Source: Octopus vulgaris (lineage: Eukaryota). From it: DNA of 64,000 nt. Each line of letters opens with the position of its first letter. Position 1 is the first letter of the stretch. The notes below the pieces were generated by a model. It was not told where the DNA came from, did no database searches, and worked only from the letters and a program-made list of their open reading frames with translations. The position numbers and the translations under genes were made by a program. This document shows, piece after piece, positions 15,301 through 56,213 of the stretch. The stretch spans positions 60,760,001 to 60,824,000 of the forward strand of contig OX597822.1 in the NCBI GenBank assembly GCA_951406725.2, read 5' to 3'.

Positions 15301-16069
15301 TCGCCAACACTACACCTGATTTTCTCCCCTCCATACACATGCAAACATGTATCTGACTCATACACTGTTCTCTTCCCAGACGTTTGTACATTACTGCATA
15401 TGCCTTATACACACTTTTGACAAGTTGTGGTGCACCTGAGCACTGTATTCAATAATTTCATTATTATTATCATTATTATTATATTTAAACTACATTTTGA
15501 TTGGTTTCATTTCCTGTCATTATCAAGTGTCTTAATCTTGAGATATGTACATGACCCCCAAACTAAATTTGAACAAGAAAGTTATTTCTACAGTAAGGAT
15601 AGTAATGTTCATATTCACTAAGCCACTACTGTTAGTTTATCAATGAAAACATAACATATTATTAAAATTGTAACTACACATTCTAAAAGGTTAATACTCT
15701 GGTGCATTATAATCTTAATAACAACTCATGTCACGTATTTAAACAATCTATAAAATAGATGTTTCATGTAAAGTCTAGAAAGACTGATTTCTTTTAGTTT
15801 TCACTTTATATATATATACCAATTAAGGACTGAACACGAAAAAGTGGACAGTCAACATGCTAGATATAGACGTCAAATCGCCATTCTCCACATAGACTTT
15901 TTGTGGAGAATGGTGATTTGACGTCTATATCTAGCATGTTGACTGTCCACTTTTTCGTGTTCAGTCCTTAATTGGTATATATAAATATTTTAATCTTCGG
16001 ATTCTTTCTTTAATATGCTAGACCACTGGTTCTAATTGATAAATATCAATTTTTACCCTAAATTTAATG

Positions 16070-16107
<38 letters not shown>

Positions 16108-16292
16108 CAGAGATGTACTTGCATAGCGAGTGACTTGATCTGAGATCGTGTGCTGGAACAAAAACAATTGCAACGTGGAAGATGTTTATAAGCCATTTAA
16201 GAAACACACAAAAACCGTTAAATGTTGAAGTGAATCTAACGGTTTTTGTGTGTTTCTTAAATGGCTTATAAACACCTTCCACACTGCAATTG

Positions 16293-16338
<46 letters not shown>

Positions 16339-16832
16339 CCGAAGACTGTTTGATTTCATTATTTTCCTTCTTTTTTTGCCTGTGTGAGTTACAGAGAGGG
16401 TTGTCTGTGGAGTCATATTTTGTAGCGAAAAGAAATAACGGTCTTTTGGCTGCTATTTCTAAATTTTTCAGTATGTGGTCAAGCAACTTGTTGCTAAACC
16501 CTTAATTATTGTTATAATTATATATAAAACTTTTTGTATAAGTTTTTACCGAATATGGTTCCTTTCCATACCGAAACTACTTGGTGAAATTTATTAATTA
16601 TAAATTAATAATTTAACCCACAAGAGTAAACAAGAGAGACAGAGACAGGCAGAAACAAGGAAAATACCACTTGTATTTGAACACTATACAAATATCCTTT
16701 TAAAAAACTTTTCTTTGAATTTTTCTAAATTTAATTATTTAATTGTTACAATTGAAAAAGTCTCAATGACTGAAACCGGTACTGAAATGTTCTTTATAAA
16801 ATTATTTTAGCATTTTCTATCCTGACTTGCTT

Positions 16833-16870
<38 letters not shown>

Positions 16871-19552
16871 ATAAACGGTAAGATAACAAAAGGAAGAAAG
16901 AGACCTCAATATTATGTAAATAGAGGAAATTTATCTATACAATATGTTACATTACTCGGTAGTCAAGATAAAACTCTGAGTTTCAGATGCCGAAGTGGAA
17001 ATCCACAACACCATCTCTTCGGTTATCTGGCTATTTGAAAACGTTATGAAAAAATACCGTTAAAAATGAAGGGAAATTACTCTGTTATAACTCTGCTTTG
17101 CCTGCGTACTTATACATCGCTCGCATTTTTCGTCATAAAAATTATATAAAAATACATAAAAATATATAAAAATATATAAAAATATATAAAATCTTCTTGG
17201 GACATTACACAGAAAGCATGTTCTATCCGTTTTCTTTAGGGGACCAAAAACGTAACAGAAATTTAGTCACATGTGGGCATGATCCGAAAAGCTCTGTCCT
17301 TGTATTTAGACATGTGGTAGGGTCTAAGCTGCTTTTCCAGATAAGCCATCTCTCCATGTCGCATAAACCGCACCTTCCGCTGCCGTTAGTATAGGGCTTA
17401 CATCTGGCCAAAATCTTCCATTGTATGTTATAATCGACACCTTTATCTCTTAAAGACCAAATATGATTGGATAATTGTGTCGCTTTTCTTTTGTTCCAGT
17501 GCCTAAAGCTCAAAGTGTGGTTATTGAACCTGGCCTTGAAATTACCCTCTGTCAGGCCCACGTATTTCTTTGTCGAAACGGTGTCTTTAGTGGTTATAGA
17601 GTTTACGGTAGCTTCATATATGATGGTCTTGGACATGCAAGCTCCATTTAGCGGGCACAATTCTTTATTCCTGCATGAACAGCTGTTTTCTTCTTGTGTT
17701 TTTTGTATGTTATGATTGATTATGTTTTTAAAATTGGTAGTTGAACTAAAACTAATTTTTAAATTGTGTCTATTGAAGAGTTTCCTATAAGCATGGTTAA
17801 CTGGAAAATGTCTATCTATCAGTGCTAGGAAATATTTACCTATATTGAAGGCCACCTCGGGTGAGTAAGGGGCGTAAACCAGATGACCTTCCTATTTCTA
17901 TTATTCCTTTTCCTTATTGTTGGGCTGGTGATAGGTGTATATTTTATTTTTTCGCTAAAACCACTATCTTTTAAAGCTTTATTATAAACTGGGGCAACGC
18001 TATTGAAGATGTCCTCATTAGATGAGAGGCTAGAAATCCTCTTACTAATATTTTTAACTAAATTTTTGAATACTATAGGGGGATGGCATGAACCTACATT
18101 AATATAACTTAGTCTATCATTGGGCTTCCTATAAGGCTTATAAATATTATTATTAAGATCTAAGGAAACGTCTAAGAAATTGACAACCGTCAGGTTAGTG
18201 TCTATAGTTATACTAAGTCCGAAGTGTTTCATTAACTGGATAATATCCTTCCTAAAACGATCTTGTGCTGGACTTAGTATAACTATAGACACTAACCTGA
18301 CGGTTGTCAATTTCTTAGACGTTTCCTTAGATCTTAATAATAATATTTATAAGCCTTATAGGAAGCCCAATGATAGACTAAGTTATATTAATGTAGGTTC
18401 ATGCCATCCCCCTATAGTATTCAAAAATTTAGTTAAAAATATTAGTAAGAGGATTTCTAGCCTCTCATCTAATGAGGACATCTTCAATAGCGTTGCCCCA
18501 GTTTATAATAAAGCTTTAAAAGATAGTGGTTTTAGCGAAAAAATAAAATATACACCTATCACCAGCCCAACAATAAGGAAAAGGAATAATAGAAATAGGA
18601 AGGTCATCTGGTTTACGCCCCTTACTCACCCGAGGTGGCCTTCAATATAGGTAAATATTTCCTAGCACTGATAGATAGACATTTTCCAGTTAACCATGCT
18701 TATAGGAAACTCTTCAATAGACACAATTTAAAAATTAGTTTTAGTTCAACTACCAATTTTAAAACATAATCAATCATAACATACAAAAAACACAAGAAGA
18801 AAACAGCTGTTCATGCAGGAATAAAGAATTGTGCCCGCTAAATGGAGCTTGCATGTCCAAGACCATCATATATGAAGCTACCGTAAACTCTATAACCACT
18901 AAAGACACCGTTTCGACAAAGAAATACGTGGGCCTGACAGAGGGTAATTTCAAGGCCAGGTTCAATAACCACACTTTGAGCTTTAGGCACTGGAACAAAA
19001 GAAAAGCGACACAATTATCCAATCATATTTGGTCTTTAAGAGATAAAGGTGTCGATTATAACATACAATGGAAGATTTTGGCCAGATGTAAGCCCTATAC
19101 TAACGGCAGCGGAAGGTGCGGTTTATGCGACATGGAGAGATGGCTTATCTGGAAAAGCAGCTTAGACCCTACCACATGTCTAAATACAAGGACAGAGCTT
19201 TTCGGATCATGCCCACATGTGACTAAATTTCTGTTACGTTTTTGGTCCCCTAAAGAAAACGGATAGAACATGCTTTCTGTGTAATGTCCCAAGAAGATTT
19301 TATATATTTTTATATATTTTTATATATTTTTATGTATTTTTATATAATTTTTATGACGAAAAATGCGAGCGATGTATAAGTACGCAGGCAAAGCAGAGTT
19401 ATAACAGAGTAATTTCCCTTCATTTTTAACGGTATTTTTTCATAACGTTTTCAAATAGCCAGATAACCGAAGAGATGGTGTTGTGGATTTCCACTTCGGC
19501 ATCTGAAACTCAGAGTTTTATCTTGACTACCGAGTAATGTAACATATTGTAT

Positions 19553-19620
<68 letters not shown>

Positions 19621-21442
19621 TTATGGCCTGTTCGTAAGGTTACCCAAGATTTCGTATTCATTAAGCGTCCATTCACATACATCTCGTTAGACCCTAATGG
19701 GCGGTGGCCTATAACCTCTCTCCTAAATGGAGGGGAAACGGTCTCATTGCTAGTTTTTGTACACACAAAAAAGATCAAGCGCAGTGCAAAGGATTATCTC
19801 CCTTAGACCACTACCCAGTAAGGTCCTATATAGAATAGCTGGAGCCAACTTTGGAGTTATTGTATGGTCATTGAGAACAATGGGTGAGTTTCAGTTTAGT
19901 GACTGGGAGACCTAACAAGGTCTACCAGTGTCATTAGATCGAACAAGGGAGTTTCTATGTAGTTACAGGAACCAACCAGGGAGTCAATGTAACCACTGCG
20001 ACTAAGCTAGGAAATCTCTTTATGGTCACTGGAGCCTTTTCATTGTCAATGGATTCAACAAGGGAGCTTGTATGAGACTATTGGAGGGAAGAAGGAAGCT
20101 TCTTTGACAGAAAGGTATAAACATGATATATTCCCTGTGCCTTTTCATGAGTTTTCTTTTTCTATATTTTGTTACATTATTTCCTATTTGAAAATGGTTT
20201 CCTTTTATGGTACTAATGGCTTGGGGAAAAACATAAATATCACATATTCCTTTTGTGTTTGCATTAGATATTGTACTTTTTTTTATCTTGTTACTGTAAT
20301 AGGAAACTTCTACTACAAGTCAACAAAGAAGCTTCTGCATGACTTGCAAAGGCTCAAGAGGAACATTAAAGGCATTGGTCCTACCACTCTGTGAGAGCTT
20401 GCAATGGCTATGGGCACTGTCCTTCCTTCAGACCTACTAAATTAAAAATTATGATGTTTTGTAAATATTATACAGTGTAAAATAGAAAAGTGAATATTGT
20501 TATGTACTGGGTATATATATTTACTAGGCATCAGAAACTAAGCAACTTTTACGAAATTTTGTTTAGCTGTGGTTTTATAGTGCTATATGCATTTCAGAGA
20601 TATTTATCCACCTGGACAGGATGGCAATCTATTTTAGGTAATACTCCCAGCTGATTTCTTATCTATTTCTTCTATCAGCCAAATACTCTGAAGGGATGTA
20701 AGAAGTGTTCTGTACTTGAAACATCAACCGGGAATAGATGAGCCAATAGTTCATCCACTCAGCTAGCTCACCTCTGTCCCAGTTAGGTAGTGATTAACTA
20801 GATTTACTAGGATTAATTGAATTTAAATATCAACAGAAGAATTTCTTACATATTTTGTCTGTGATTTATTAGTCAAAATACTGAGAATGTTTGAGAACTT
20901 GTTGACTGTTTTTATTGGCCAGAATACTGAAATTATTTAACCACTTATTGATTATGTCATACTGGTCAGAATACTAAGATCATTTATTTATTGAATGTGA
21001 CACCTGAGACCAGAGAGACTGACATAGTTGGTAATCTGTTTAAATATGTGTAAATCAATGTATGTGGTAAAAATTGTTTGTGTGATGGTCTAAATGTAAG
21101 ATCAATTGATTTCTAACTTCTCAAGGACAACTAAATAATTATTTCTTTTCTTACCGTTCTATCATTTAATTGTCTCTTTCACATATCCTAGAGGAAGCTA
21201 AAAAATACTTGAGAAAAATCATCACAGAATTCTTACAAGCTAAAATCAATGAGCTGAAAATTACAGTAAACACAAAGTTAAAGGAATCTGAAGTGATGTT
21301 GAATAATAAACTGGAAATTGCTGGCTACAATGAATATCTTAAAAGACATACAACAAGAAAATTTCTCAAATTAGGGAGAAGAATAACAACCATTGAAGGA
21401 TGTTTCAAAACAAAAGACAAAGACAAAAGTTCATACTACTAA
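1453..21442 (+). CDS. CFAP119: CFAP119/CCDC189-like gene, paralog A (5' partial; join 1453-1518,4428-4597,5795-5865,9128-9244,12482-12539,14650-14760,21192-21442)
   Basis: All exons have AG/GT boundaries and compatible phases, giving an open frame: (W)NDLNPEQSETLMKAPTLKKVKD ILAEIFKL...[51 protein letters not shown]...[28 protein letters not shown]...[11 protein letters not shown]...NNKLE...[22 protein letters not shown] matches the human CCDC189/CFAP119 CLAMP domain as recalled from memory. Confidence 0.9.
2840..3200 (+). mobile_element. Degenerate CR1/L2-group LINE ORF2 3' fragment
   Basis: YYVQSFFPRMLALWNSLLVHIFP resembles the terminal SFFPRT..LWN.LP motif of CR1-group ORF2. Confidence 0.55.
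3512..3828 (-). mobile_element. tRNA-headed SINE with Meta-like central domain
   Basis: The minus strand has A/B-box-like head, then TTGAGCAAGACACTTTACTTCACGTTGCTCCAGTCCACTCAGCTG..AAATGAGTA; the same domain occurs at 46844-47195. Confidence 0.65.
4428..4597 (+). CDS. CFAP119: CFAP119 paralog A exon 4
   Basis: tttttag|TATTCTTGCT...TGTACTG|gtaagt, 170 bp, ILAEIFKL...HEVCT. Confidence 0.92.
5795..5865 (+). CDS. CFAP119: CFAP119 paralog A exon 5
   Basis: ttttcag|AAAGTCCC...GTCAGT|gtaagt, 71 bp, SPFGNLDDTFNFFKDILLHHSVS. Confidence 0.92.
6052..7250 (-). mobile_element. Mariner (DD34D) transposon, degenerate
   Basis: TIRs TTGGGTCATCCCATAAAT, TA duplications (6050-51, 7251-52); transposase remnants [18 protein letters not shown] and WVPHKL; same family as 56210-57481. 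Confidence 0.92.
7598..8240 (+). mobile_element. RTE-type LINE 3' end with trinucleotide tail
   Basis: Terminal peptide EAMTKDRDLWRYAVTAKTRQIT*, 3' UTR with repeated gtggcacgtaaaaagcacc units, tail (GAC/TAC/TAT)n. Related copies at 10160-10447, 33566-34080(-), 39815-40156, 52260-52365, 52507-52790. Confidence 0.75.
8658..9038 (+). mobile_element. tRNA-derived SINE family 1
   Basis: Head ggcataggagtggttgtttggtaagtagc, B box GGTTCAGTCCC, internal (TG)n, tail (GTAAAAGA)n; at least nine near-full copies in the window. Confidence 0.88.
9128..9244 (+). CDS. CFAP119: CFAP119 paralog A exon 6
   Basis: tttctag|CGTCCACCA...CCACAG|gtaaat, 117 bp, RPPYSSELF...[15 protein letters not shown]. Confidence 0.93.
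9690..10130 (-). mobile_element. Penelope-like pLTR/3' remnant with hammerhead (9876-9920)
   Basis: Minus strand GTCA-CTGAAGA-A-GTCAC-AGGATGT-ATGAC-GAAA-GATTTC-AGAC; 9780-9850 resembles 53645-53720 of the PLE at 53.6-56.2 kb. Confidence 0.6.
10491..11015 (+). mobile_element. Non-coding retrozyme-like / partial tandem pLTR element in (TA)n
   Basis: Perfect 125-bp direct repeats (10491-10615, 10891-11015; period 400), internal hammerhead, TA tracts on both sides. Confidence 0.75.
10771..10844 (+). ncRNA. Type I hammerhead ribozyme (CCGAUGA core variant)
   Basis: Stem I CTCTTA/TAAGAG; core CCGATGA; stem II TTCT..AGTAAT..ATTACT..AGAAC; GAAA; palindromic stem III ACTGCAGT; GUC site, predicted cut after 10838. 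Confidence 0.8.
11391..11710 (-). mobile_element. Mariner-type transposase C-terminal fragment with one TIR
   Basis: Minus strand HLPYLPDLSPTDFQLF..MK..LKGHRF and DQCIVAQGDYFKGDD; TIR caaggtggtatcaaaaagttccc. Confidence 0.65.
12482..12539 (+). CDS. CFAP119: CFAP119 paralog A exon 7
   Basis: tcag|GTGCAGCTT...AGCCAAG|gtaagg, 58 bp, VQLDLALNYIGESESMTSQ. Confidence 0.9.
13561..13973 (-). mobile_element. SINE family 1
   Basis: Full-length reverse copy with many CpGs intact (young). Confidence 0.88.
14281..14538 (+). mobile_element. CR1-type LINE 3' UTR fragment
   Basis: Similar to 15216-15480; ends in (ATT)n. Confidence 0.65.
14650..14760 (+). CDS. CFAP119: CFAP119 paralog A exon 8 (alternative in-frame acceptor at 14659)
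   Basis: Pyrimidine tract, aag| acceptor, donor GAAAG|gtatgt; E/K-rich linker homologous to 58594-58683. Confidence 0.75.
14850..15480 (+). mobile_element. CR1-type LINE, 5'-truncated (RT C-terminus + 3' UTR)
   Basis: LYIAMVQPHLEFASPVWNPY...DINCLETVQQHATKRIPSIRHLPYSECL is a CR1-type motif; (ATT)n tail; absent from the paralog B intron. Confidence 0.88.
15811..16070 (+). mobile_element. Mini fold-back insertion (82-bp inverted arms + 87-bp tail) in (TA)n
   Basis: Arms 15811-15892 and 15902-15983 with one mismatch; unpaired tail to 16070; TA flanks. Confidence 0.7.
16105..16294 (-). mobile_element. Mini fold-back insertion (58-bp inverted arms + about 58-bp tail) in (TA)n
   Basis: Arms 16163-16220 and 16237-16294; tail 16105-16162; TA flanks. 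Confidence 0.7.
16333..16836 (+). mobile_element. Probable pLTR remnant with degenerate hammerhead (16749-16784)
   Basis: TTGAAAA-A-GTC-TCAAT-GAC-T-GAAA-CCGGT-A with palindromic stem III ACCGGT; TA flanks. Confidence 0.45.
16868..19557 (-). mobile_element. Penelope-like retroelement, 5'-truncated, as a 2.6 kb palindrome
   Basis: RT thumb (VNFLDVSLDL..YKPYRKPND..YINVGSCHPP), Cys linker, C-terminal GIY-YIG (IIYEATV..YVGLTEGNFKARFNNH). Arms 16932-18220 and 18270-19557, 49-bp spacer, 64-bp tail, TA flanks. Confidence 0.95.
19456..19529 (+). ncRNA. Type I hammerhead in the PLE pLTR (CCGAAGA core); mirror copy 16960-17033 on minus strand
   Basis: Stem I AGATAA/TTATCT; core CCGAAGA; stem II GATG..GTGGA-TT-TCCAC..CATC; GAAA; stem III ACTC-A-GAGT; GUU site. 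Confidence 0.72.
21192..21442 (+). CDS. CFAP119: CFAP119 paralog A exon 9 (terminal, coiled coil)
   Basis: cctag|AGGAAGCT...TACTAA; [42 protein letters not shown]; homologous to 60234-60421. Confidence 0.9.
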
Positions 21443-21709
21443 GGTGACAGGATATTTTTTGTTTGTGACAGTTAAATATATAAGAAAAAGAATAGTAATG
21501 AGAAAAAAATTAACAAGGAAAGAAACTTATTTTCTGTTCAAAAATATTTACTAATATACTCCAATTTCTAACATTGTAACAAGGGTTGATGGCGAATAGA
21601 ATCAGCATCAGTCAATGACTAGAAGGTATCTATTGACCCTGGAAAGATGAAATACAAAATTGACCTTGGTAGAATTATTACAGGGGGAAAATAATGCATC
21701 ATGCAACAC

Positions 21710-21715
21710 AATAAA
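21710..21715 (+). terminator. Putative polyadenylation signal, paralog A
   Basis: AATAAA about 270 bp after the stop, at a position homologous to AATAAA at 60666 in paralog B. Confidence 0.5.
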
Positions 21716-21944
21716 AATAAAGGTTTAGTTTTATGACAAAAATGAAAAGATTATAATGATTTACTTTTTTGATACTAACTTTATGTAAAATAAAATTTAA
21801 ACAAAATTATGAAAAGTCTTCAGCTTTTAAATCTATGGTTAAATCTGTTTCCATTATTTACAAAAACTATATATTGAACTTATATTTCATAGATCATACA
21901 TTTTTCTAGTGCCATCAGATATGACCTGTCATTTCTGTCTCTTT

Positions 21945-22005
<61 letters not shown>

Positions 22006-22544
22006 CATCCATCCATCCATCCATCCATCCATCCATCCTTTCTATTCTTCTAACTCTCTCTATGTTTAAATTTGCTATGAGGCTGTCTTTTCCTTCTTCC
22101 ATATATTTCCCATTCAAAGCTTGTTTGTTAATCTTCCTTCACTCTGTTCTCAAATGATGATCTTTATATTTTCATTATCTTTTCTTAATTATTGGTGATA
22201 TTATGGTTCACCAAACAGACCTCAGTTTCAACAATAATTTTATATTTTCAATTTCAGCAAGCTTGTGCTTTAAACTCCTTTAAATGCAGTTGAAGTATTT
22301 ATTTTTAAATGAGGCTAATTGTTCTCAAATTACTTGATCATTTTTGACTGTTCCAAGGACATTATTAATTAGATATAACATCTTAAACTGAATTTAAATT
22401 TGTAATTTTATGCTTCAGCTATAAATATAGATTTAACTCTATTATGTGCATATTTTTAGAATCTTTTATATATCTATTTTCAATATTCCCATTTGTCAAC
22501 CAATTACAACAATTTCTTATATGGTCCAACCACAATATGCAGAT

Positions 22545-23160
22545 CAATTTGTAGGTGTAGCTGATAGCCTTTGTTGCCTTGGTGCCCTAATTAGCAGTGG
22601 AGATAGGTGTTCTGAAAGTATAATAGCCTAAGTAAGAATGAGTTGGAAAAAACTTGGAGAGCTATTACCTCTTCTAGCAACAAAAGATTTCTCTCTTTTA
22701 GTGAAGTGCATGTTGTATAGTACTTGTGTATGAAGTATGATATTGCATGATCAATAAATGTGGGTCCTGAATTTGCAGGATTTGCACAAGCTGAGAATAA
22801 CCGAGGCTGAATGTGTAATGCTGGTGTGCAGAAACAAAGTGAATAAATGAACTGATAGAAAAGGTGGATATAAGAGGAGTCAGATGTAGTATGCATGAAG
22901 AAGACTGCACTGATGTGGATGTGTGATGGAGATGGAGGATATTTAAAGATGTGGCCAGCATTCTAAGTTGTTGAAGTTATGAGTTGAAGTGATAATTATC
23001 AAATTCAAAAAACCGTATTGTAGTATTGAATGGATGTCTATGTAAGTTGCAACATGTAGGAAAATGTAGGAAAAGTTGAGTGCTCCAAGAAAAGGAAAAC
23101 ATTAACATGAAATACATGCAATGAAAAACAAAGTGTAATGTGATGACATTATGGATTGTA
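22545..23160 (+). mobile_element. Degenerate RTE-type LINE ORF fragment
   Basis: VADSLCCLGALISSGDRCSESIIA..SWKKLGELLPLL resembles the RTE RT C-terminal region; many stops. Confidence 0.6.
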
Positions 23161-23167
23161 TGTAAAA

Positions 23168-23596
23168 GGCATAGGAGTGGCTGTGTGGTAAGTAGCTTGC
23201 TTACCAACCACATGGCTCCAGGTTCAGTCCCACTGCATGGCACCTTGGGCAAGTGTCTTCTGCTATAGCCTCAGGCTGACCAAAGCCTTGTGAGTGGATT
23301 TGGTAGACGGAAACTGAAAGAAGCCCGTCATATATATGTATTTATATATATATATATGTGTGTGTGTGTGTATGTTTGTGTGCTTGTGTTTCCCCCCCCC
23401 CCAACATCGCTTGACAACCGATGCTAGTATGTTTACATCCCCGTAACTTAGCGGTGCAGCAAACGCGACCAATAGAATAAGTACTAGGCTTACAAAGAAT
23501 AAGTCCTGGGGTCGATTTGCTCGACTAAAGGTGGTGCTCCAGCACGGCCACAGTCACATGACTGAAACAAGTAAAAGAGCAAAAAGAGAAAAGAGC
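23168..23596 (+). mobile_element. SINE family 1
   Basis: Full-length copy; forms an inverted pair with 23881-24265. Confidence 0.88.
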
Positions 23597-23880
23597 AGCA
23601 TGAAAACGTGTATGCACATAGATCAAACATCAGGTGCATGTGAAACTGCAGGTTATGAATGAGTTTATGCACAAGGTGGACTGCAAAAAGTTGAAAATTG
23701 CTGTGCAGTAAGATGCTCCAAGTGGTCAACATGAAATTTGCAGAGAGAAAATTGCTGTCATCAGTATGAATGAAAAAACAAGCTGGTATTATATACAAGC
23801 ATTTGAAGTGTGCATGTGAATGCATATGAGATAAAAAGCAGAGAGGACATGTTAATATGTATGTGAAAAAGAGCATTTAT

Positions 23881-24265
23881 ACTCTTTACTCTTTTACTTG
23901 TTTCAGTCATTTGATTGTGGCCATACTGGGTCACTGCCTTTAGTCGAGCAAATTGACCCCAGGACTTATTCTTTGTAAGCCTAGTACTTATTCTATTGGA
24001 TCTCTTTTGCCGAACCACTAAGTTACGGGGATGTAAACACACCAGCATCGGTTGTCAAGCAATGTTAGGGGCACAGACACAGACACACAAACATATACAC
24101 ACTCATACATATATACGATGGGCTTCTTTCAGTTTCCGTCTACCAAATCCACTCACAAGGCTTTGGTCGGTCCGAGGCTATAGTAGAAGACACTTGCCCA
24201 AGGTACCACGCAGTGGGACTGAACCCAGAACCATGTGGTTGATAAGCAAGCTACTTACCAAACAG
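23881..24265 (-). mobile_element. SINE family 1
   Basis: Reverse copy. Confidence 0.88.
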
Positions 24266-25034
24266 AACAAAATTAAAGTGTTGCATGCCCAAGTAAAACA
24301 AAATATTATAATGCAAAATGAAAATGCAAGCAATCTAAACAAATGAAATAAGAAAGACAAAATTGTCCTTATATGCATAGTTTGTTGGACGCTTGTCCTG
24401 AAAGATATGTGAAAAGGTTATAAAAAGTGTATGGAAGCCAGATAAGCAAGTGTCTGTGTGGAATCCAAGCATGGAAAGCTGATTATGTGCTTTTTGGCAG
24501 GAGGTACACTTTGTGTGCCTAATTTTCAATAGTTTTCCATGTCAGGTTTCCATATTTTTGGCAGTGTAATCCTTATGAATGAAAACAATTCATTGCAGGA
24601 CTTTGGCACAATCATAAACTTGCAGTGTTTGAAAAAATGAGGGGCACATGCTGTAAATGTGTTTGTTGATTGTCACCATTTAAAATATTTATACGCTGTA
24701 TATTTTTTCTGTTCCAAGTAATGGCAGAGTAAGGCTGCATAGGCTTGTTTCATCTTCAAGGGTCATTAATTTAATCTGAAAATGACATCATCACTACGTT
24801 AATGATGGGAAATGAATATGTTCCCACATTAACAATGAGAGGAATAAAAAGGTAGTTATCTTTGATTCATCATGTGTTGACTGTTAAAAGACTATATTGG
24901 ATGTGATAGTCCAATACAGGAAGTTCTTTTCAGGTAATGGCTGGGCAGAACAGCTTCTGTGGTTATGAGTAGAAGAGAGAAATATAGAACAAATTTATAT
25001 GAAACATCACCTAATTGCCTAACTTCGTCCATCC

Positions 25035-25071
<37 letters not shown>

Positions 25072-26210: not shown

Positions 26211-27183
26211 GGGAGAATTCACTAAAAAACAAAAGATGAAGACAGGTGGTGTAGACAAAAAGCAGATGTATTAGTTTAACACTTGGGAAGTGAAAAAGTC
26301 TTTAATGTTTCAAGCCTACGCGCATCCACAGAAAGAAACAAAGAAAGGAAATAAAGAATGCGTAGTGGCTAGCGATCTATCATGGCAAATACCAGACAGA
26401 AGGGTCACACAGGAGACCTAGGAAAAAGGGGAGATAATAAAGAAGTGGTTATCTCAAAATGAAGGTGTGTGTGCATGTGTATAAGAGAGTATGTATGTGT
26501 GTGTGGAAGAGGGCTGGTGACTTTGACATGTGTATGTGTAGGTGTGAAGATGTGGGGCTGGGAAGTGGTCAGTGTTAGTGTGTACGTGGTGGTGTGATGT
26601 AATGTGATGTGGTGTTGTGTGATATGATGGTGTAGTGGTATGATGGTGTTGGGAAGTGGTGGAGGCAAGAGTGGGGAAAGCAAAGGTGGGGTGTGGGTTA
26701 GGCTGAGGGTTGGATATGAGGGTGGGGTGTAAAGGATGGGGTGGGGTTGGATGGGAAGGTGGGGTTAGAATGTGTAGGGGTGGGCTGGTGTTACGAGGGA
26801 GGGCTGACGATGAAGGGGGAAGGAGAAGGTGGGTAGGAGTGAAGAGAAGAGAGAAGGAGAATAGGAGTTAAGAGAAGAAGTAGGAGTCGGAGCAAGAGAG
26901 GAGAGGTGGGTGGAAGGAAGTAGATGTGAGGAGTGGGAGGCGAGGGGGAGGAGAGTTGAGCCCATGTGGCGCAAAGGAGCGAAGAGAGAAGATTAATCCC
27001 TGTTCACGGCACAAATGGGAGTCCAGATGGCCCCTGTGCAAGGACAATCCAAGCATGGACAGGTGTTGCAGAGAGTGACCAGTAGAGTGGAAATGGCACA
27101 AGATCGGGGTGTCATTGCCAAGTTGGATGTCTCGGGCATGTTCTGCGAACTGGTCAGCCAAGCAGCATCCCGTTTTCCCGATG

Positions 27184-27185
<2 letters not shown>
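26211..27185 (-). mobile_element. Penelope-like 3' fragment (GIY-YIG endonuclease + 3' UTR)
   Basis: YIGKTGCCLADQFAEHARDI...HFHSTGHSL...REQGLIFSLRSFAPHGLN; degenerate minimal hammerhead near 26298-26335; TA flanks. Confidence 0.8.
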
Positions 27186-27239
<54 letters not shown>

Positions 27240-28639
27240 TATATTTATGAGTTTCACATTCCCATTCGTTGGACAGTTTTGTTAAAATAGAGCAGAAATA
27301 ACAATATGATCAAAACTTGTTAAAGGATACACCTTTAAAAATGGATTTGTTTCATTGGTCCTTTCAAATAACAGTCTTAATCATGCGATAAACAAAATAA
27401 ATAAAATAAACAAAATCAATGAATTCAATATAAATTCATCCTATTATAAAAAATTTAGGAAAATCCTTAAATCGAAGAGCAGATTCAAAATACATATTGT
27501 CATTAATTATATATGAAATATAATTCGATTAATACAATTAATGCATTAAAAATTTAAATATTTCACAATAGTGTATACGCATACTAAACCATCAATATAC
27601 ATATATACATCAAAATACACAGATGGATATACACAGACCACATATATATGCAGACATATATATGTAAGACGTAAATATACACACAAATATATATATATAT
27701 ATACATATGTATACGCAATCTTGCCCACATGCAAAAATCACTTGATGTATACATATAGACTAGAAGTAAAATGCAGAGAGGGGGAAGAAAAAGAAAAAGA
27801 AAAGGTAACGATCTTATAAGCAACAGTTAACTAAAGAAGTGAGTAAGAGAAGGAGAGGGGGCGTAAAGTAACGAATAGGGGGAGAAAAAATATTTTTCCG
27901 TAACGAAAGAAAGGAAGAAAGAAAGAAGTCTGAATATGCGTAATGAACGTACACAAAATAAAATCAAATTACCTATACATGTGTATAAAAAAGTGTATAT
28001 TAGCAGTAAATACACATATAAGAACACATATATAAATATATAGAGATAAGTACGTAAATACACATCCACACAACATACAAATACATCCATGTATGTATGT
28101 GCATAAGTATAAACATACATGCTTACTTACACATATACATAGGCGCATACACATATATATATGTATATATATATATATATATACACATATGCCTCGATAC
28201 CCTCACCACACATACCACTATACAAATGCCCATACACACTGTTCAACTCATTACTCACTTCACACACCATTACATACACCCACAAACACCTTCCCACTCT
28301 ATACACACTAGCACCAACCACTTCAGAGCACCTACACCTCACACCTACACACAATCTTCAATAGCATCACTACACATTCTACTATACGAACAGCCATACA
28401 CACTGGTTAACTCAGTATACACACCACGCACCATCATGCACACTCCCACACCCACACAAGCACATAATACCTGAACACAGACAATATATACACAACATGC
28501 AACACATAAACACATCCAACACACACAAAGATAACTTTAGCTCACAAACATACACTGACACACACACACATGGTAGACTCACTTGCTCCCATTCGCACAT
28601 ACACTCACACACACCATTCTCATATATACACACACACTT

Positions 28640-30876: not shown

Positions 30877-30895
30877 TTGGTATGTGGAACGCTTT

Positions 30896-30950: not shown

Positions 30951-30975
30951 CGTTGTTCGTTTTAAAGTGTAAACG

Positions 30976-33560: not shown

Positions 33561-33605
<45 letters not shown>

Positions 33606-39754: not shown

Positions 39755-39805
<51 letters not shown>

Positions 39806-43440: not shown

Positions 43441-43521
<81 letters not shown>

Positions 43522-45045: not shown

Positions 45046-45086
<41 letters not shown>

Positions 45087-48000
45087 CTGTAAATGTAATA
45101 TTTGACAATCATTCGGTAGCCATGGCAAAACTCCAAGTTTCGGATGCCGAGGTGGAAATCCACGCCGCCATCGGAAAAATCTTTTTCCAATAGCCGGATA
45201 ACTGAAGAGATGGCGGCGTGGATTTCCACCTTGGCATCCGAAACTCGGAATTTTATCATGGCTACCTAATAATTGTCACATATTACATTTACAGATAAAT
45301 TCCTCTATTTATATAATATCGAGGTCTCTTTCATTCTTTTGTTATCTTACCATTTTTATCAATATATATATAGATAGATATAGATATAGATATAGATATA
45401 TATGCATACATACATACACACACACACAAATTTTAATCTCTCATTACCTAGCATAAATCCATATCCCTCAGTACTACTCCCCATCTCAGTTGAGGAGTCT
45501 TATTTTGGGTGTCATATATAAATATACATACACACACACATACACACACACACGCATGCACGCACGCACACATATATGTGGTCTGATTAATTAGTATCAG
45601 AACTATTGCCATAGTAACGAAGCTAAAGCATACAGAGTGAAGCTGCTTGGCACAGATTGACCTTGAACTCTGCTGTGCATTCACACTAAGTTTTAATGTT
45701 CTAGCTCACTTCAACTGTTTACAGCAGTGCTTGGAAGTAACATATGTAATGTGTGACCATTGCATTGAACATGACAAAGAAAGCTGAGCAGAGAATCTGC
45801 ATCAAATTTTGCCAAAAGCTTGGCAATATCTGCTGAGATGCCTACACATAGTTTTCAAAAAGTTTTCATCGTTCTTGATACAATCAAGGAGATCTTGTGC
45901 AACTGAAATCCAAGTGCTTTTTTGGTCAGCTGAAAGCAGTTTTGGCACAAACTTGGCAGACACACGTATCATACCCAAATCGTCAGTGATGATGGACTGA
46001 ACTGAACTGTAACTAATCTGCACATCCTCTGATAACTCACATATGGTGATTCAATGATTTCCCCTCACAGCTGCAAGCACATCTGCAATGTTTTTCTCAG
46101 TTCTGCTGGTTGCAGGTGTCCCAGAACATTCGTTGCTATTATTATTTTTCAGCTATCTTGGAAATGTCTGAACCACTTGTACACTTGTGTGTGACTCATA
46201 CATTTTCTGCAACTTTGCATAGGCCTCTGAGCAGATATCGCCATGACAACTTTTTCTGTCATGGTCAATGCGACAATCACACATTACACACATTACTTCC
46301 AAGCACTGCTGTAAACAGGAGAAGTGAGCTAGAATGTTAAAACTTAGTGTGCATGCACAGCAGAGGTCAAGGTTAATCTAATCTGTGCCAAGCAGTTTCA
46401 CACTGTGTGCTTTAGCTTTGTTACAATGGCAACAGTCTGGATACTTATTGATCAGACCTCATATATATATATATGATTCAAAATGTGACCGCATGTGTAC
46501 CATTGGCGATTTTTTTTCCTCCATCTTCCCTTCTCTGGATCTTTCCTTTTCCTATGTTTCTGACAAAGAGCTCTGCTTGAAACGTAAAACCCTCCTTCTT
46601 CCCTTCCTTACTGAGCGTCCAATAATACTATATTTGTTCTACATCCTCGCGTTGTGTTTTCTCTTTGTGTTTTCATGTTTGGATTAATTATATATATATA
46701 TATATATATATAGTAAATATGTATGTATTTACACCACTATGTATTTATGTGCATATATCTTAGTGGATGTATGAGTATGTAGGAATCTTATATTTACTTC
46801 ATTTTGAATCCCACACGAGTCATCAGGTTACTTTCAGTGATTAAAAAGGATAAAAAGACACCCTTCGGTCATTCATGACCGAAGGGTGTCTTTTTATCCA
46901 GAAAGTTCCCCTCTAAAGCACACTCTGGGCAGGGCTACCTATAGAAGACCAGCTGTTGCCCATACATACCCAGCTTCCCCCTCTCCAATCCATCGATGTT
47001 GTTCAAGGGATAAGTAAAGCCCTATACAGCTTGGCACCAGTGATGTCGCAACTCATTTCTACAGCTGAGTGAATTGGAGCAACACAAAATAATGTGACGT
47101 GCTCAAGAACACATTACACAGCCCAGTCCAGGAAGCAAACTCACTGCCTCATGATTGCAAGTCTGATGCTCTAACCACTGAGCCATGCACCTTCACAGTG
47201 ATTATAATTTAGTCAAAGGATGGGGAAAGTTCCTCAATTTTCCTTATTTCTAAACTGGAAAATAGGGTCAACTAGATAAGATTGATGTTTCAAAATGTTG
47301 ACCGTTGTTCTGTTACAATTTAGTTGTGATACTGAGTAATTCATGCAATTGTTGTAGTTGTTGTTTAAACTCATGTAAACATTGATCCATTGATGTAACC
47401 AATATTCCAGTTATTTAGATGTAGTGTTTCAATGGCAATTTTTCCAATGAATCCATTTTCTAAGATGGTAGTATGGAATCTGAGGAATATTTGGCAACTA
47501 TTTCTAGTAATTTTTGTGACACTATAAAGACTTCCCTTACCATTTTAAAGAAAACTGAACACATTGGATAACACTGTATAACAAAATTTTTTATTGTTTT
47601 TGGTTTTTGGTCAGTAAGTGTTATTTCCTATTTGTTTCTATCTAGAAATCAAAGGAAATGACTACTACTCCCTTGCTTTTGTGTCCTGAACAGCAATGTT
47701 TTGAAACTGACCTATATTCCATTACATCTCAGGCAGATTCAGTGCTGGGCTGCTGAAGCAGAAATTTCACTATAGTAAATATTCTGCTCAATACCACAGA
47801 TTTGCTTATCAGTTGCTTGACCATAACCACTTGAGCATGTCCCGTAGTGGCTGGTAATATGTGCATCTCTGATCATGAACAGGAGTAGTAGGGGAGTATC
47901 ATAGCCATGTCTTCGGAGGGATTCTCTGGTTTGAATAAATGTAAGAAAAGCCAAGTTTGAAGGAAATATTAGTAATCTTTTGCATACTTTCTAGGGGTAA

Positions 48001-48617
48001 GCAAATAGGAAATAACAGTTGATACTCAAGGACAAAAATCGTGTTACACAGTGTAATGTACCCCTAAATGCACTCTCACTAAAATAATAATTAGAGTGGT
48101 TATAGCTAGAATGCCTCTGATTATTGGTTTGCTAAACAACAACTGGCCATGACATATTTATTTGTTCATATTTTTAGTGTCCCCCGCATAGTGCAGAATT
48201 GTTTACACTGAATGAAGTAAGGAAGATGTCTTTCCATATGATTAATACATATTTTAGACACTTTAAACTCTACAAGTATGCATTTACTCCACATGTAAGT
48301 CTATTTCATTATCCATATTTAATCTTTCTCTTTAAATGCTAAGTCCATTAAATATGCTTCCTACCATATCATGATAAAAACAATTGTAATCATCTTTTCT
48401 TTATTAACCACAAGAGATCTAAGAGTTACAAAAACTAAGAAAGTTTTACCAGGGGTTACCAAAAAGAAAGGATAATGTGGAGCATGAAATAAACACATTT
48501 ACAAGATACAAAGGGGGTGGGTAAGAGATGTTATACAATATTTGAAAGGAAGTATTAAGAATTTTGAAGGTGAGTACACACACACACACACACACATACA
48601 CACACACACACACGCAT

Positions 48618-48665
<48 letters not shown>

Positions 48666-50797
48666 AGATTTTCTGAGTTGAGTATTCCATCACCTTGTTC
48701 ACTTAATTACTTTTCAAACTGTGACTGAGTAGAACCAAATGCACTACTAAGCATTTTTGTTATTGCTTTTGTAGTTTTTTAGGTATTTAATGTTGGAACA
48801 TACCCACACCCAAGGATATTCTATTTTTAGTGCAGTAGTCTATCTTTTACATATTGTTTCTATTCTGAACTTGTGACATTCATATTTCTTCAGAGAATCA
48901 ATTACACCTGTTAATGCGTAATTTTGACTATCAACTATTTGAGAAATTTTGTCATTCAGAAGAAACTATTCTTTCTCACTTGTTTCCCTTGTTTCATATT
49001 GTCTTTTATTCTGTGATTTTTATCATCTTTTTTCCTTTCATACTTCCTTCTGTAATAATTTCTTCCTCATCACATAATGAAAGTGTAGTACTACAGATTA
49101 ATACTGTTAAGCAATGAGCTACTCACTCATCTGTGTAATACTGGACTTAAAGATATTTCCACTGCCATCTCCAGAAATTTAGCTGATGCTGCTCTGGAAA
49201 GTGGTGTTTGTGGTTCTTTTTGCTGTTGCTCTTCATTACTTTTTCTCTCCTTGTTTTTGCCTAATCTTCTTAATTTTTCAAGGCATTCAGCTCTGAGGTG
49301 TGTTTTACTACAACAAATATATAAACTAGGTTTTCCACTTGGTATCATCAAAGTCATACCCTTTGTCCTGGCACCTTTAATTGGTTGCAGTTTTGGTATT
49401 GCTCTGTGGCCTTTGGATGTCATTTGGACTCTCAAGTCCTTTTTAACATCTTCTGACAACAGTTCACTTTTCATTAAGCCTACTTTGACTACCCTCTCAT
49501 ACTGCAACACAAATGTCATTACCAGCCAAGGGTCTACATTGTGTCCAATGTCCCTTATAGTGACTATATTTCTTTGTCCCTTTTCTATAGCAGAAATGTT
49601 TAGTCAGAAGTATGTCTGGGTATTTCAGTCTGTGTTTTGGCTGTGTTCCCAGTTTTAAAAATACAGGAAATAGTGCCTTGTTCATTTTAGACAATTTGTC
49701 CCAATCTGTCTCAGAGCATTTGTTGCACTACTTGGCATGAGGAGAAATTTAATTTGCTTCTGCCTTTCTGTTGGGCAGAGATATATTATTATTTTTTCTT
49801 TACTCTCTCCTGGATTTACTCATGTTACAAAATTCTCCCATTTATATTTTATTTCTTATAATTTTGATAGGCCTTAAGACCAAATATTTTGTCTGTTCAT
49901 TTAGTGTTGAGGGAAGGTTTCTTACGTAGCTGCTTTATGAACAGGCCATAGTACTTGATTTGTGTAAGAGTTGATGTAGCATTAAAAAAAAAATACAGTA
50001 ATATTTTCTGTTTCTTAAATAAACACAGTTTTTAAAACATTTTTTTATATTCTAAAATAGTTATTTTTATGTTGCATAATATTAATCACTTTACCAATAC
50101 CAGGTGCAACTTGATTTAGTTTTAGACTACATTGGAGAACCTGAATCCATGACAGACCTAGGTAAGTAGTACCTATTATTTATGCTTACACCGTAGTTAT
50201 ATGTATTGGCTGATTCTTAAAATTGGTTCATTTGCACAAATCATAAACCTTTATACTGCTTTGTAGTTAACAAGCAAATCAATAGAACTCATGCATATTT
50301 TTTCTTTATTCAGTGACTCTAGCAGAAATCTCAGAACTCTCATCACACAACACAGATTTATGTTCTTTTGTAAATTCTGTTGACTTTGATTTTGTCAATA
50401 CAAACTTTGTTAATTTCCTCAGATTCTAGTTCGTTTTTATTTAATTTTTTATTAGTTTTTCTTTCAATTAAATGATAAAAAGAGTTTTATCAATAAAATG
50501 ATAAAATTGTGAACAAGTCTCTATATGATGGCAATCACAAATAAAAGAGTCTCGGTATAATTGCTGGAACCAATGAGGAACTTTCTATATGGTCTTTACT
50601 CTTTTACTTATTTCTGTCATTTGACTGCAGCCATGCTGGAGCACCGCCTTTAGTTGAGCAAATCGACCCCAGGACGTATTCTTTGTAAGCCTAGTACTTA
50701 TTCTATCGGTCTCTTTTGCTGAACTGCTAAGTTACAGGGACACAAACACACCAACATCGGTTGTCAAGTAATGTTGGGGGAACAAACATAAACACAT

Positions 50798-50828
<31 letters not shown>

Positions 50829-52455
50829 CATATATACAACGGGCTTCTTTCAGTTTCCATCTACCAAATCCACTCACAAGGCTTTGGTTGGCCTGAGGCT
50901 ATAGTAGAAGACACTTGCCCAAGGTGCCATGCAGTGGAACTGAACCCAGAACCATGTGGTTAGTAAGCATGCTACTCTATATGTTGTATTTGTAAAATAT
51001 ATCAGAGTTGTAAGAATGGTCAATGTGATGGTTCCTTCATTATAGCTTCATCAAAAGATGAAAGCCAGCACACATGACTAATTGTATGGCCTCTAAGAAA
51101 GAAGAGGAAGAAACCATGATTCATGGGTTGCTCTAGTAGCAAGAATCACAATACACTGAGATCTCTTCTAAATGTTTACAACAGTACGAACACTGCTAAA
51201 CTCATATCTATAGCAGAGTGAACTCTGCTAAAATATCCAGGGGCTAGATGGGGATATTAAACTGGGTGATGGACTAGATACTGAATAAATCCTGTTTGAA
51301 AACTTCTCCACAGTTTCTTTCTCAAAAACTGGAACATCCTGATGCTATGGTAGAAGACACTTGACTAAAGTGCTGTACCCTGAAATTAAACTTATAGCCA
51401 ACCAAATGATTGAGAAGTGAACTTCTTAAACACATTACCACAAATTTGTGTATAATAGGCATAGGAGTGGCTGTGTGGTAAGTAGCTTGCTTACCAACCA
51501 CATGGTTCCGGGTTCAGTCCTACTGCGTGGTACCTTGGGCAAGTGTCTTCTACTGTAGCCTCAGGCTGACCAAAGCCTTGTGAGTGGATTTGGTTGACAG
51601 AAACTGAAAGAAGCCTGTTGTATATATGTATGTGTGTATATATGTTTATGTGTCTGTGTTTGTCCCCCCAACATCACTTAACAACTGATGCTGGTGTGTT
51701 TACATCCTTGTAACTGAGCGGTTCAGCAAAAGAGACCGATAGAATAAGTACCAGGCTTACAAAGAATACATCCTGGAGTCAATTTGTTCAACTAAAGGCA
51801 GTGCTCCAGCATGGCCACAGTCAAATGACTGAAACAAGTAAAAGAGTAAAAGAAGATACACAAATTTGACTTATGGTATTTGCCTTAATGATTTTGTAAT
51901 TTATTATTATATTTACCTTTAAGGCGGCAAGCCAGCAGAATTGTTAGCAGTCCATGTGAAATGCTTAGCAGCATTTTCTCTGTCTTTACATTCTGAGTTC
52001 AAATTCTGCCAAAGTTAACTTTGTCTGTCATCCTTTTGGAGCCAGCAAAAAAAGTAGCAGTTGAGCACTAAGGTTGCTCCTCCAAAATTGCAGAACTTGT
52101 GCTGAAATTTGAAACTGAAGGGCAGTGCACTGGTAGAGTTGTTAGCTCACCAGGTAAAATGCATAGTGGCATTTCATCCATCTTCATTTTCTGAGTTCAA
52201 GTTCCACCTAGGTCAACTTCACCTTTCATCCTTTCAGGGTCAATAAAATAAGTATCACTGACTGGGCCTGATGAAGCCTTCCAGCTTCACAGACCCCAGT
52301 TGAACCGTCCAACCCATGCTAGCATGGAGAACGGACGCTAAATGATGATGATGATGATGATGATGATATTCCAGCGCAGGGGTTCCTAACCTGGGGTCTG
52401 CAGACCACTGTTCGTCTGTAAAGGTCGTATTGAGAGTCCATGAACTAAATTCAGA

Positions 52456-52504
<49 letters not shown>

Positions 52505-53297
52505 AAGCGCCGCCTTGACTGGCTTCCGTGCCGGTGGCACGTAAAATACACCAATCCGACCGTGGCCGTTGCCAGCCTTGCCTGGCACCTGTGCAGGTGG
52601 CACGTAAAAAGCACCCACTACACTCATGGAGTGGTTGGCGTTAGGAAGGGCATCCAGCTGTAGAAACATTGCCAGATAAGACTGGAGCCTGGTGCAGCCT
52701 TCTGGCTTCCCAGATCTCCGGTCGAACCGTCCAACCCATGCTAGCATGGAGAACAGACGTTAAACGATGATGATGATGATGATGATGATGGGGTCGAAGT
52801 AATCAACTGACTCCCTTCCCGAAATTGCTGGCCTTATGCCAAAATTTGAAATAAACATTATATTTACCATCAGCTAACTGTTGGTTAGGATATAAAGTTA
52901 GAACCCCTTCAATTTATTTTGTTAATATTACAATTACCGTCTACCTTTTTTACCTTGTATTTGTTTCAGTCCTTTGACAGGGGCACTGCCTTGAAGGGTT
53001 TTAGCCAAACAAATCGACCCCCAAGACTTATTTTTTTGAAGCCTAGTACTTATTCTATCGGTATCATTTTACTGAACTGTTAAGTTGCAAGGATGTAAAC
53101 AAACCAGCACCAGTTGTCAAGTAGCAAGGAGGACAAGCAAAGACACACACACACGCACACACATAGAAACTACGCCACAATGGACAGTTAGACTCTGGAC
53201 AGCTCCCTGATAGCCAGCTCCATGTCAAACCATCCAACCCATGGCAGCATGGAAAGAGGATGCTAAACAATGATGATGATGATGATGACGATGATAT

Positions 53298-53338
<41 letters not shown>

Positions 53339-53437
53339 CTATCAGTTTAATAAATAAATAAGTTAACATTTTAATGTCCAAAAGTTAATGAACCACCTAT
53401 TGTTCTCTTCCATTTTCTTATTTGCGATATATATGTT

Positions 53438-53474
<37 letters not shown>

Positions 53475-53505
53475 GTACATATACATATATGTATATATAT
53501 ATATA

Positions 53506-53582
<77 letters not shown>

Positions 53583-56148
53583 GTTTAAATATTTGTTGTG
53601 CAAGATTTTTTATGTAAAGTCGTGTGTTGAAACAGATATTGTTATATTTCGGAATGGTCATATTGCCAGTTTAGCCAATAAAAACACACGCACTATATAT
53701 TTGGTGTTATTTTGCTTCAGTGATATTTATTTTTTACATTAATCTTAATCTTATTTCGGCCAAAGTTCTTTCGTCACACTCCTGTGACCGCATCAGTGGT
53801 CCTTTGTTTTCTTCTCACTTACTTGTGTCTCTCCTTACTAACCGTCAGCCATTTTGTATTTCTATTGTATGTCTTCATTTGCGCATGCTTATATCTCTAT
53901 GTGCGTCTATGTTTATTTAGTGTGTGTGTGGGGGGGGATGCCTGTAATATTTGTATCTTCTGGTTATATACATTCTTGTAATTTGTATTTTGTTTTTGTT
54001 GTTGTTGCTTTTGTTCTAATTTTGTTCATGTGTTTACATCCACCCATTATTATCATTACATATGCTTGTATGTATGTATAACAACAATATTAGTAATAAT
54101 AATAATAAATCTAATCGAAAAAAAAAAAAAAAAAAAGAATATACATATACATATATATATATACATACATATACATATACATATATATATATATACATAT
54201 ATACACACATATATACACATATACATATACATATATATACACATATACATATATATAGATATTCATTTCTATTTCTTTAATTACCTGTGTATTTATTATG
54301 TTTGCAGGATCCACTATTGTCATATGTTGTGGTGTGCGCTATTGCTCCATTCTAGTTTTCTATTCAGGCTAGGTTTATTTTCTATTATATGTGTAGCTTC
54401 TGTAATTTGTCTAATTGTTGCATCTGTTCTATGTGTGGACAATATCTTAATCTCTATGTTATTGATTGATCCCCCGTGTTCTTGTTTGGCGTGTTGGTAC
54501 AGAATCGATGAGCTTTTACCTTCCTTGAGTTGTCTCCAATGTTCATTCACCCGCTCACCAATGCTTCTTGCAGTTTCCCCTACGTATGTTACTGTCTTGT
54601 TACTGCATCGTCCCTCTATACATCTTATACTATAGACCACATTTCTGGCTTTACAGTTCGTTTGTGGGCTAAATCTACATACAGTGCAATAGTTATCCGT
54701 ACAGAGAGTTCTACTAAAAGGATAGGTTCTACCAATTATAGATCTGATAGGGTTGCCTGGCTTTTCAACAACCTTAATTCTTAGTTTAAGTTTATCTAGG
54801 GTCCTTCTAAAGCGGTACGCTAGTTCACCTCCAGGGGTGGTGTCAACGAACATGACACTCTGGTATTTATGGCTATCATACCAAGAGTTGGCCTTCCTTA
54901 TTTTCTTTTTTGTCCTTTCTATAGTGTTCCATGACTTGTTCCTATAGAGTGGGCAAATCCCATTCCTATCATTACATAATATATTATCAAATTTCTTCAT
55001 GGCTCCTTTGTATACTCTGATCCTTTCTTTATGGCTGTAACCTGAGAACTGCATGCAGTGAATGAAATACTGTATGTGTCTCTTTAATTCTGTAGGCTCG
55101 CACATGCGTGACACATTTCTCATTATTCTGACGAGGTCTGCCATCAAAATATTGAATTTGGCATTGCCCGCAATGGCTGAGTTCCGGTGGATCAGGTATT
55201 TTGAGGCCATAGGTTTTGCATAGTATGAATGAAGGATTTGGGTTTGGGTTTGGGTTTTATTTTTCACAATTTCTAGCCAGAGTTCAGTGTCTAGTACTGG
55301 TAGTCTATGGTTGGGGTGTTTAGTGGGGTAGTCTATTGTGAACTTAATACTCTGGTGGATGGAGTTAGCTATTTGCTGGATGCTCTCCATAGTATTAGTT
55401 TCTATTACTATATCAACAGTACTCTCTTGTGGGGGTGCCTTTACTACTATATTGATATCATCAACATAGCGAGAGTACATGTTTACGAGTATGGATTTCT
55501 GCAGTAGGCATTCTTTAAGCCTTCTGTCCCACCATACCATGAAGAGGTTGGCCACATCACCAGCGATACTAACACCGATGGCTGCCCCCTCGTCCTGGGC
55601 ATATATTTTATTATTAAATTTTATTATTAAATTTTATTATTAAATTTAAATTTAAATGTGTGGCCTTTTTTTTTTCGATTAGATTTATTATTATTATTGC
55701 TAATATTGTTGTTATACATACATACAAGCATATGTAATGATAATAATGGGTGGATGTAAACACATGAACAAAATTAGAACAAAAGCAACAACAACAAAAA
55801 CAAAATACAAATTACAAGAATGTATATAACCAGAAGATACAAATATTACAGGCATCCCCCCCACACACACACTAAATAAACATAGACGCACATAGAGATA
55901 TAAGCATGCGCAAATGAAGACATACAATAGAAATACAAAATGGCTGACGGTTAGTAAGGAGAGACACAAGTAAGTGAGAAGAAAACAAAGGACCACTGAT
56001 GCGGTCACAGGAGTGTGACGAAAGAACTTTGGCCGAAATAAGATTAAGATTAATGTAAAAAATAAATATCACTGAAGCAAAATAACACCAAATATATAGT
56101 GCGTGTGTTTTTATTGGCTAAACTGGCAATATGACCATTCCGAAATAT

Positions 56149-56213
<65 letters not shown>

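Follow-up and report, generated by a model that had tools for sequence, protein, structure and literature searches.

The window analysed here, a 64,000-nt stretch of the Octopus vulgaris genome (GCA_951406725.2, contig OX597822.1, positions 60,760,001 to 60,824,000), contains five insertions (E1 to E5) with the same order of parts: TA tract, tail, arm, junction, inverted arm and TA tract. Both outer ends of every insertion are 3' parts of the element, i.e., the arms lie head-to-head. The end with the tail is designated site A and the end without it site B. By their sequence motifs, E3 and E4 were assigned to Hydra-clade PLEs, E5 to Neptune-type PLEs and E1 to a 512-bp hammerhead-bearing, retrozyme-like repeat, and E2 represents a non-coding family of about 205 bp. 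An earlier sequence-only reading had described a mirror layout for five insertions of four families between 15811 and 56156, with unpaired tails of 87, 58, 64, 65 and 55 nt in E1 to E5, respectively; all five insertions and all five tail lengths were confirmed. The tailed arm is the longer one in four of the five elements, E2 being the exception. Target-site duplications are unreadable within the TA tracts, and none was clear in the E2 flanks. Two short palindromes (46848-46899 and 60079-60161) lie outside TA tracts and are separate from this arrangement.

Elements in the window

E1 follows a left (TA)n target (15807-15818). Its tail-less arm (15819-15892, minus strand) extends 74 nt from site B and is a truncated copy of a hammerhead-bearing tandem repeat of about 512 bp; the tailed arm (86 nt, 15890-15975, plus strand) overlaps it by 3 nt and is followed by the 95 nt between site B and site A (15976-16070, plus strand), the first 8 of which are TA-like and match the tract, leaving 87 unpaired (15984-16070). 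The element (15819-16070) is a fragment of a non-coding tandem repeat with units of 506-512 bp. A hammerhead core with stems that fold was found in each tandem unit of two E1 subfamilies, and no pattern match was obtained in subfamily c; the copy in the window breaks off short of the ribozyme. The Rfam search of the family gave no hammerhead match, and only microRNA-hairpin and simple-repeat matches below the gathering score were obtained; a microRNA reading of these was rejected as generic palindrome scoring. At least two tandem units, each carrying a type I hammerhead, are present in the two subfamilies. Metazoan non-LTR retrozymes are described, in the passages available, as non-coding tandem units of 150-450 bp with a hammerhead (PMC7229834; 10.64898/2026.07.22.740005). 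The E1 family, known here from DNA, is similar to them in its non-coding tandem units of about 510 bp with a hammerhead core each, but its units are slightly longer, and inverted two-site ends are absent from those retrozyme passages. On these motifs the E1 family is classed as retrozyme-like. At another locus (L057, about 950-1060), 31 nt of host flank are duplicated in inverted orientation across the TA tract beside an E1-family insertion, an arrangement that looks like genuine fold-back of the target.

E1 and E2 share one (TA)n tract (16071-16104), and such pile-ups recur elsewhere, for example an E2 tail beside an E3 copy at L344. E2 consists of a 58-nt tail (16105-16162, minus strand), a tailed arm of about 56 nt, here the shorter arm (16163-16219, minus strand), and a tail-less arm of about 74 nt, which carries the apparent spacer (16220-16294, plus strand). 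The longest arms of the family share one 5' terminus, and the lengths measured for E2 arms carry noise, as the references differ from the subfamilies. Many tail-anchored E2 copies (L061-L090) have no inverted arm, and some of these lie in (AAT)n or plain AT-rich DNA.

E3 comprises a 64-nt tail (16868-16931, minus strand), a tailed arm of 1340 nt (16932-18271, minus strand) with the 3' UTR including a hammerhead-like motif, the GIY-YIG endonuclease and the RT thumb region, and a tail-less arm of 1288 nt (18270-19557, plus strand), with a 2-nt overlap at the junction. Its older relative E4 comprises a tail-less arm of 89 nt (45084-45172, minus strand), a snap-back-like junction insert that is a short inverted copy of the adjacent tailed-arm end (45173-45181), a tailed arm with a hammerhead-like motif (45182-45297, plus strand) and a 65-nt tail (45298-45362, plus strand). 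E3 (16868-19557) and E4 (45084-45362) belong to one family, and the inverted arms of both stop at AGATA, followed by TATA, at 19557 and 45084, just as the sequence-only reading had noticed. The hammerhead-like core and stems of E3 and E4 were recognized by eye and by folding, the core being a variant in E3; Rfam returned no hammerhead match for them.

A complete tandem copy of the E3 family (L358) has 2590-bp units with a 708-aa ORF, in which RT, C-terminal GIY-YIG, RWK, DKT instead of DKG and a CxCx5C linker were identified by eye, together with CxxC and CxH near the C terminus; CCHH is absent. Pfam gave no match for this ORF. Section 11 of PMC8557442, as far as available, defines Hydra-clade PLEs by a short unit, RWK, DKT, the CxCx5C linker and the lack of CCHH. 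The E3/E4 family agrees with that clade in its unit of less than 3 kb, C-terminal GIY-YIG, RWK, DKT, CxCx5C, absence of CCHH and (TA)n target, and no defining difference was found; on these motifs the family is assigned to the Hydra clade. The 3' part of the window element (16870-17700) showed a word share of 0.81-0.96 in sequencing runs under ten organism codes, with no RNA run among the matches listed; these may reflect close relatives, mislabels or horizontal transfer. A GIY-YIG-like fragment, labelled by eye, is split by a TA tract at 26868-27281.

E5 comprises a 55-nt tail (53581-53635, minus strand), a tailed arm of about 2.0 kb (53636-55668, minus strand) with the 3' UTR, GIY-YIG and the 3' part of RT (ORF 54320-55633), and a tail-less arm of 491 nt (55666-56156, plus strand). 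A 13-nt stutter of 3.3 repeats (55605-55647) directly precedes the junction and looks like repeated re-priming. It is missing in another copy (L369), which has a tail-less arm of 2446 nt and a tailed arm of 480 nt and is the mirror image of the window element in this respect. Pfam gave no match for the partial ORFs of the window, and the E5-family ORF matched RVT_1 (E=1.8e-4) and GIY-YIG (E=2.3e-3), both below the gathering score. Searching PDB sequences returned nothing significant for the PLE protein of either the E3 or the E5 family. The E5 ORF has a C-terminal EN, a CX2-5CxxC linker and two Cys between GIY and YIG, the features by which the available text of PMC8557442 marks the Neptune clade; E5 is Neptune-type by these motifs, with the N terminus not recovered. 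No tandem copy of this family was seen. A repeat with an ORF occurs at 56219-56754 and at 6913-7240, the former copy directly following the right TA tract of E5; we take this ORF to resemble the N terminus of a mariner transposase.

Fixed ends and their pairing in the genome

The PLE type of insertion had been recognized correctly by the sequence-only reading; an inverted copy plus a tail is a known layout. Insertions of EN-bearing PLEs are described as complex, with an inverted 5'-truncated copy and an optional tail of 30-40 bp at one end (PMC3846280; PMC8557442, Fig. 2 legend; available passages). The present insertions agree with them in head-to-head arms, a one-ended tail, (TA)n or AT-rich targets, tandem units and hammerhead motifs. 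They show an inverted 5'-truncated copy adjoining the 5' end, a tail at one end only, partial tandem units (2590 bp at L358; 506-512 bp in E1) and a single ORF with RT and GIY-YIG, seen in E5 as sub-threshold Pfam matches and in E3 by eye. They differ in that tails here measure 55-95 nt against the 30-40 bp described, and in the passages available the tail is called optional and counts of end-pairing and relative arm length are absent. The inverted-copy-plus-tail layout is a real, genome-wide and already described PLE architecture.

Exact patterns of a TA tract joined to site B were searched in the 2.8-Gb genome and gave 677, 376, 556 and 2387 matches for the four families (677 for E1), and the reversed control of each of the four patterns gave none. 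The site-B ending is far beyond chance. An A-anchored sample of 87 loci (27 of 27 E1 sites, 30 of 1727 E5 sites and 30 of 1270 E3 sites) contained 50 inverted partners with their end in view over the three families. Thirty-nine of these partners stop exactly at B, the remainder lie within about 10 nt of it (L196 being ambiguous) and none ends at A. The sharp single end point per family that the sequence-only reading had proposed to look for is consequently borne out.

In the B-anchored E1 sample (89 of 677 sites; 11 single-arm, 7 running out of view and 82 resolved), 71 site-B ends have an inverted partner, and the end of this partner is tailed in 67 cases and tail-less in 4. The conditional rates of A pairing with B and of B pairing with A sum to about 1.9, where independent choice of sites would give 1. 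Both samples were the first rows of the exact-pattern lists, and they overlap. Site B was used without a tailed arm in 15 of 82 E1 cases, 11 with a single arm and 4 tail-less on both sides. Two further loci (L419 and L425, about 1500-1580) are tail-only insertions, consisting of a TA tract, a 64-nt tail ending at B and a TA tract. Tailed arms stopping at B formed a weak pile-up in E1 (9 of 62 within 20 nt, versus 5 further inside the tail).

Sites A and B are both internal to the tandem units in the families with tandem copies (E1 and E3), and in both families each site lies within an ATAAAT word. Because the unit continues past A, this site does not mark the 3' end of an RNA in these families, and the label "3' end" that the sequence-only reading had attached to the tail end does not hold for either of them. 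The TA-like microhomology that it had placed at the inverted-arm end held for E1 (15811-16070; 8 nt) and, at 3-4 nt, for the two coding families, but amounted to only about 1 nt in E2 (16105-16294).

The close agreement of the E3 arms, which show zero substitutions and one 1-nt gap over 1.3 kb, is the kind of pattern that an assembly artefact from fold-back reads would leave, and among four contig sets aligned to the E3 junction none spans it, a comparison that confirmed the native continuation and is uninformative on the insertion. Hundreds to thousands of copies, however, end at one family-specific base, and arms bear separate later mutations, so an artefact is scarcely credible.

A published alternative for the fixed ends is that a long double-stranded intermediate is cut at A or B by the GIY-YIG of the element and that the ends are then joined to the target. 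This is given as the likely origin of the tail in the available text of PMC8557442, recognition by the D. virilis EN depends on the tail (work cited in PMC11167929), and A and B carry the same AT-rich word. Later in vitro work, however, places the tail between two RT start sites (PMC11167929), and if the intermediate were a single folded cDNA, one arm would still have to contain the other; resolution by the endonuclease is accordingly improbable.

The in vitro work concerns the purified anole Poseidon PAc (Frangieh et al. 2024, PMC11167929), which cuts and extends both strands at AT-rich targets. It starts RT at two internal sites that bound the tail; no start-site difference between top and bottom strands and no homology of the start site to the target were observed (PMC11167929). 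The octopus insertions are alike in the AT-rich targets and would be alike in the two start sites bounding the tail and the use of both strands. They differ in that A pairs with B here, whereas no strand-to-site coupling or target homology was reported for the anole enzyme, and inverted products are unmodelled in the main text of that study. The anole work accounts for the tail and leaves the inversion unexplained.

Template and length of the two arms

A template test was applied to 40 E1 insertions with an arm overlap of at least 60 nt. As a result, 130 of 134 shared minor alleles in the tail-less arm recurred in the tailed arm of the same insertion (0.27 expected), and the arms diverged by 1.5% within an insertion versus 3.6% between insertions, the former value being inflated by L211, which is internally rearranged. 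Both arms of one insertion derive from one template, although one RNA and two RNAs from one source locus cannot be told apart by arm alleles. Arms differing at subfamily-diagnostic sites, which the sequence-only reading had named as evidence against itself, were not found.

Arm lengths were compared in 179 B-anchored loci (89 of the 677 sites of E1 plus, for E2, E3 and E5, the first 30 each), of which 114 simple two-arm insertions were kept after those without a partner, with ends out of view or with junction gaps over 25 nt were dropped; partner detection missed some visible partners, e.g., at L272, L299, L303 and L317. The tail-less arm was longer by more than 15 nt in 52 insertions, equal in 38 and shorter in 24; the corresponding numbers in the A-anchored sample were 24, 23 and 8 (n=55; another 14 long tailed arms ran beyond the 1.5-kb view and were left out). 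Neither arm contained the other in 48 of 114 insertions after allowing for E1 tandem units (20 of 62 in E1, 9 in E2, 5 in E3 and 14 in E5). In 13 of the 114 insertions the tailed side ends within the tail itself, which leaves no tailed arm to be copied.

These lengths bear on the fold-back route favored by the sequence-only reading, in which priming happens at the tail end alone and the resulting cDNA folds back, serves as its own template and is resolved at B to reach the second TA end. Longer tail-less arms would on this route be products of later deletions at the palindrome center. The sharp B end, the same-template arms and the excess of equal lengths agree with it, and self-priming has been proposed for palindromic PLE junctions, but on an antisense template (PMC3846280, available passages). 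The fold-back of a tail-primed cDNA is nevertheless unsupported, because on that route the tail-less arm must be copied from some part of the tailed one; a single folded cDNA cannot by itself give the 48 non-contained cases, because it makes one arm part of the other. Rescue by later deletion finds no detectable age trend in E1 (non-containment in 9 of 31 younger versus 11 of 31 older insertions, p=0.67). Insertions that are tail-less only or tail-less on both sides, the longer tail-less arm of E2 in the window (74 versus 56 nt) and the fact that RT starts at B in vitro in another PLE (PMC11167929) also stand against it. Pure fold-back is largely refuted and unlikely as the sole mechanism, and the route as a whole, later deletions included, is very improbable.

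Equal-length arms were observed in 38 insertions versus 14.6 by permutation (maximum 26 in 20,000), and several E1 arm pairs match in length once one unit is added (L162 and L163). The junction overlap averaged 2.5 nt in 76 insert-free junctions versus 0.7 nt in simulation, mismatch-tolerant alignment inflating the former somewhat, and 38 of 114 junctions carried inserts. Snap-back-like inserts were seen in E4 and in the E1-family loci L157, L158, L209 and L221. These three features favor a hybrid route, in which the ends are primed at A and B and the junction is usually made when either cDNA folds back and copies itself and this sense copy anneals to the other cDNA. In 13 of 38 near-equal cases, however, the apparent loop is shorter than 3 nt. 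Of the six exact palindromes without an insert, five center on a native self-complementary word, where 25-30% would be expected by chance (small numbers); this fits two identical ends annealing. The hybrid also cannot produce the 13 cases with a tailed side stopping inside the tail. It is the main rival to the reading preferred below and on balance unlikely.

Probable priming at two fixed sites

The Penelope-type insertions probably arise when the two cut ends of the TA tract both prime RT on the same RNA, using the different sites A and B. This reading draws on the genomic counts together with the anole in vitro precedent. The enzyme would nick both strands of the TA tract; one target end would prime RT at the distal site A, and priming from the second end would take place 55-95 nt upstream at site B, with both primers on one RNA within one complex. 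The A-primed cDNA would pass through the tail and then either stop near B or displace the B-primed cDNA, and both cDNAs may often halt at the same roadblock or at the RNA 5' end. Microhomology-type end joining or template jumping would then connect the two cDNA ends, in some cases adding short snap-back copies, and yield the order of tail, arm, spacer and inverted arm. We infer the use of one RNA rather than two, the order of events and the strand displacement.

Under priming at both sites, the excess of equal-length arms would follow if the two cDNAs halt at a shared roadblock or RNA end, although equalized arms could also come from later arm-to-arm conversion, and fold-back also predicts both this excess and the snap-back-like inserts. 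Self-priming may act in the joining step, because some inserts, as in E4, repeat a short piece of the adjacent end in inverted orientation. Several observations weigh against the two-site reading: no start-site difference between strands was seen with the anole enzyme, yet pairing is near-strict here; no target homology was seen at its start site, whereas 1-8 nt match the tract here; four of the five window elements have the longer arm on the tailed side; and the pile-up of tailed arms stopping at B is weak.

A related known process is L1 twin priming, or "dual priming", in which the second target end primes inside the RNA and the inverted segment is joined by short homology (PMC2837659; 10.1101/2024.12.14.628481; available passages). 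Internal priming from the second target end would be common to both. As L1 is described there, the second site is variable and an inversion with deletion results, whereas here the site is fixed, the arms usually overlap and an inverted duplication results. The PLE insertions work like L1-type twin priming but are not members of it.

A broader version, in which twin priming is programmed in PLEs of at least two clades and in their non-coding passengers, one complex using two fixed RNA sites and copying the same stretch twice by strand displacement, is put forward tentatively, at slightly less than an even chance. If it were true, tail length would be the spacing of two active sites, and the inverted duplication would be the normal product and not an accident. 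The origin of tandem and inverted PLE insertions is named an open question in the available text of PMC8557442. The thousands of young copies give countable constraints on it, namely that A pairs with B, that there is one template and that either arm may be longer and many are equal; these counts turn the question into specific assays and exclude pure fold-back. The value is limited by the fact that the layout and the two start sites are already published. The near-strict pairing of tailed with tail-less ends and the equal-length excess are possibly unpublished: twin priming in PLEs, an end-pairing rule or arm-length symmetry was not found in the literature consulted, coverage of which was incomplete; relevant material may lie in Fig. 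S2 of PMC11167929 and in the family files that accompany PMC8557442.

Junctions in the E3 family cluster at a distance of about 98-115 nt from site B, a short way past the 5' boundary of the hammerhead-like motif; E1 junctions cluster at a similar length, but no ribozyme is located there.
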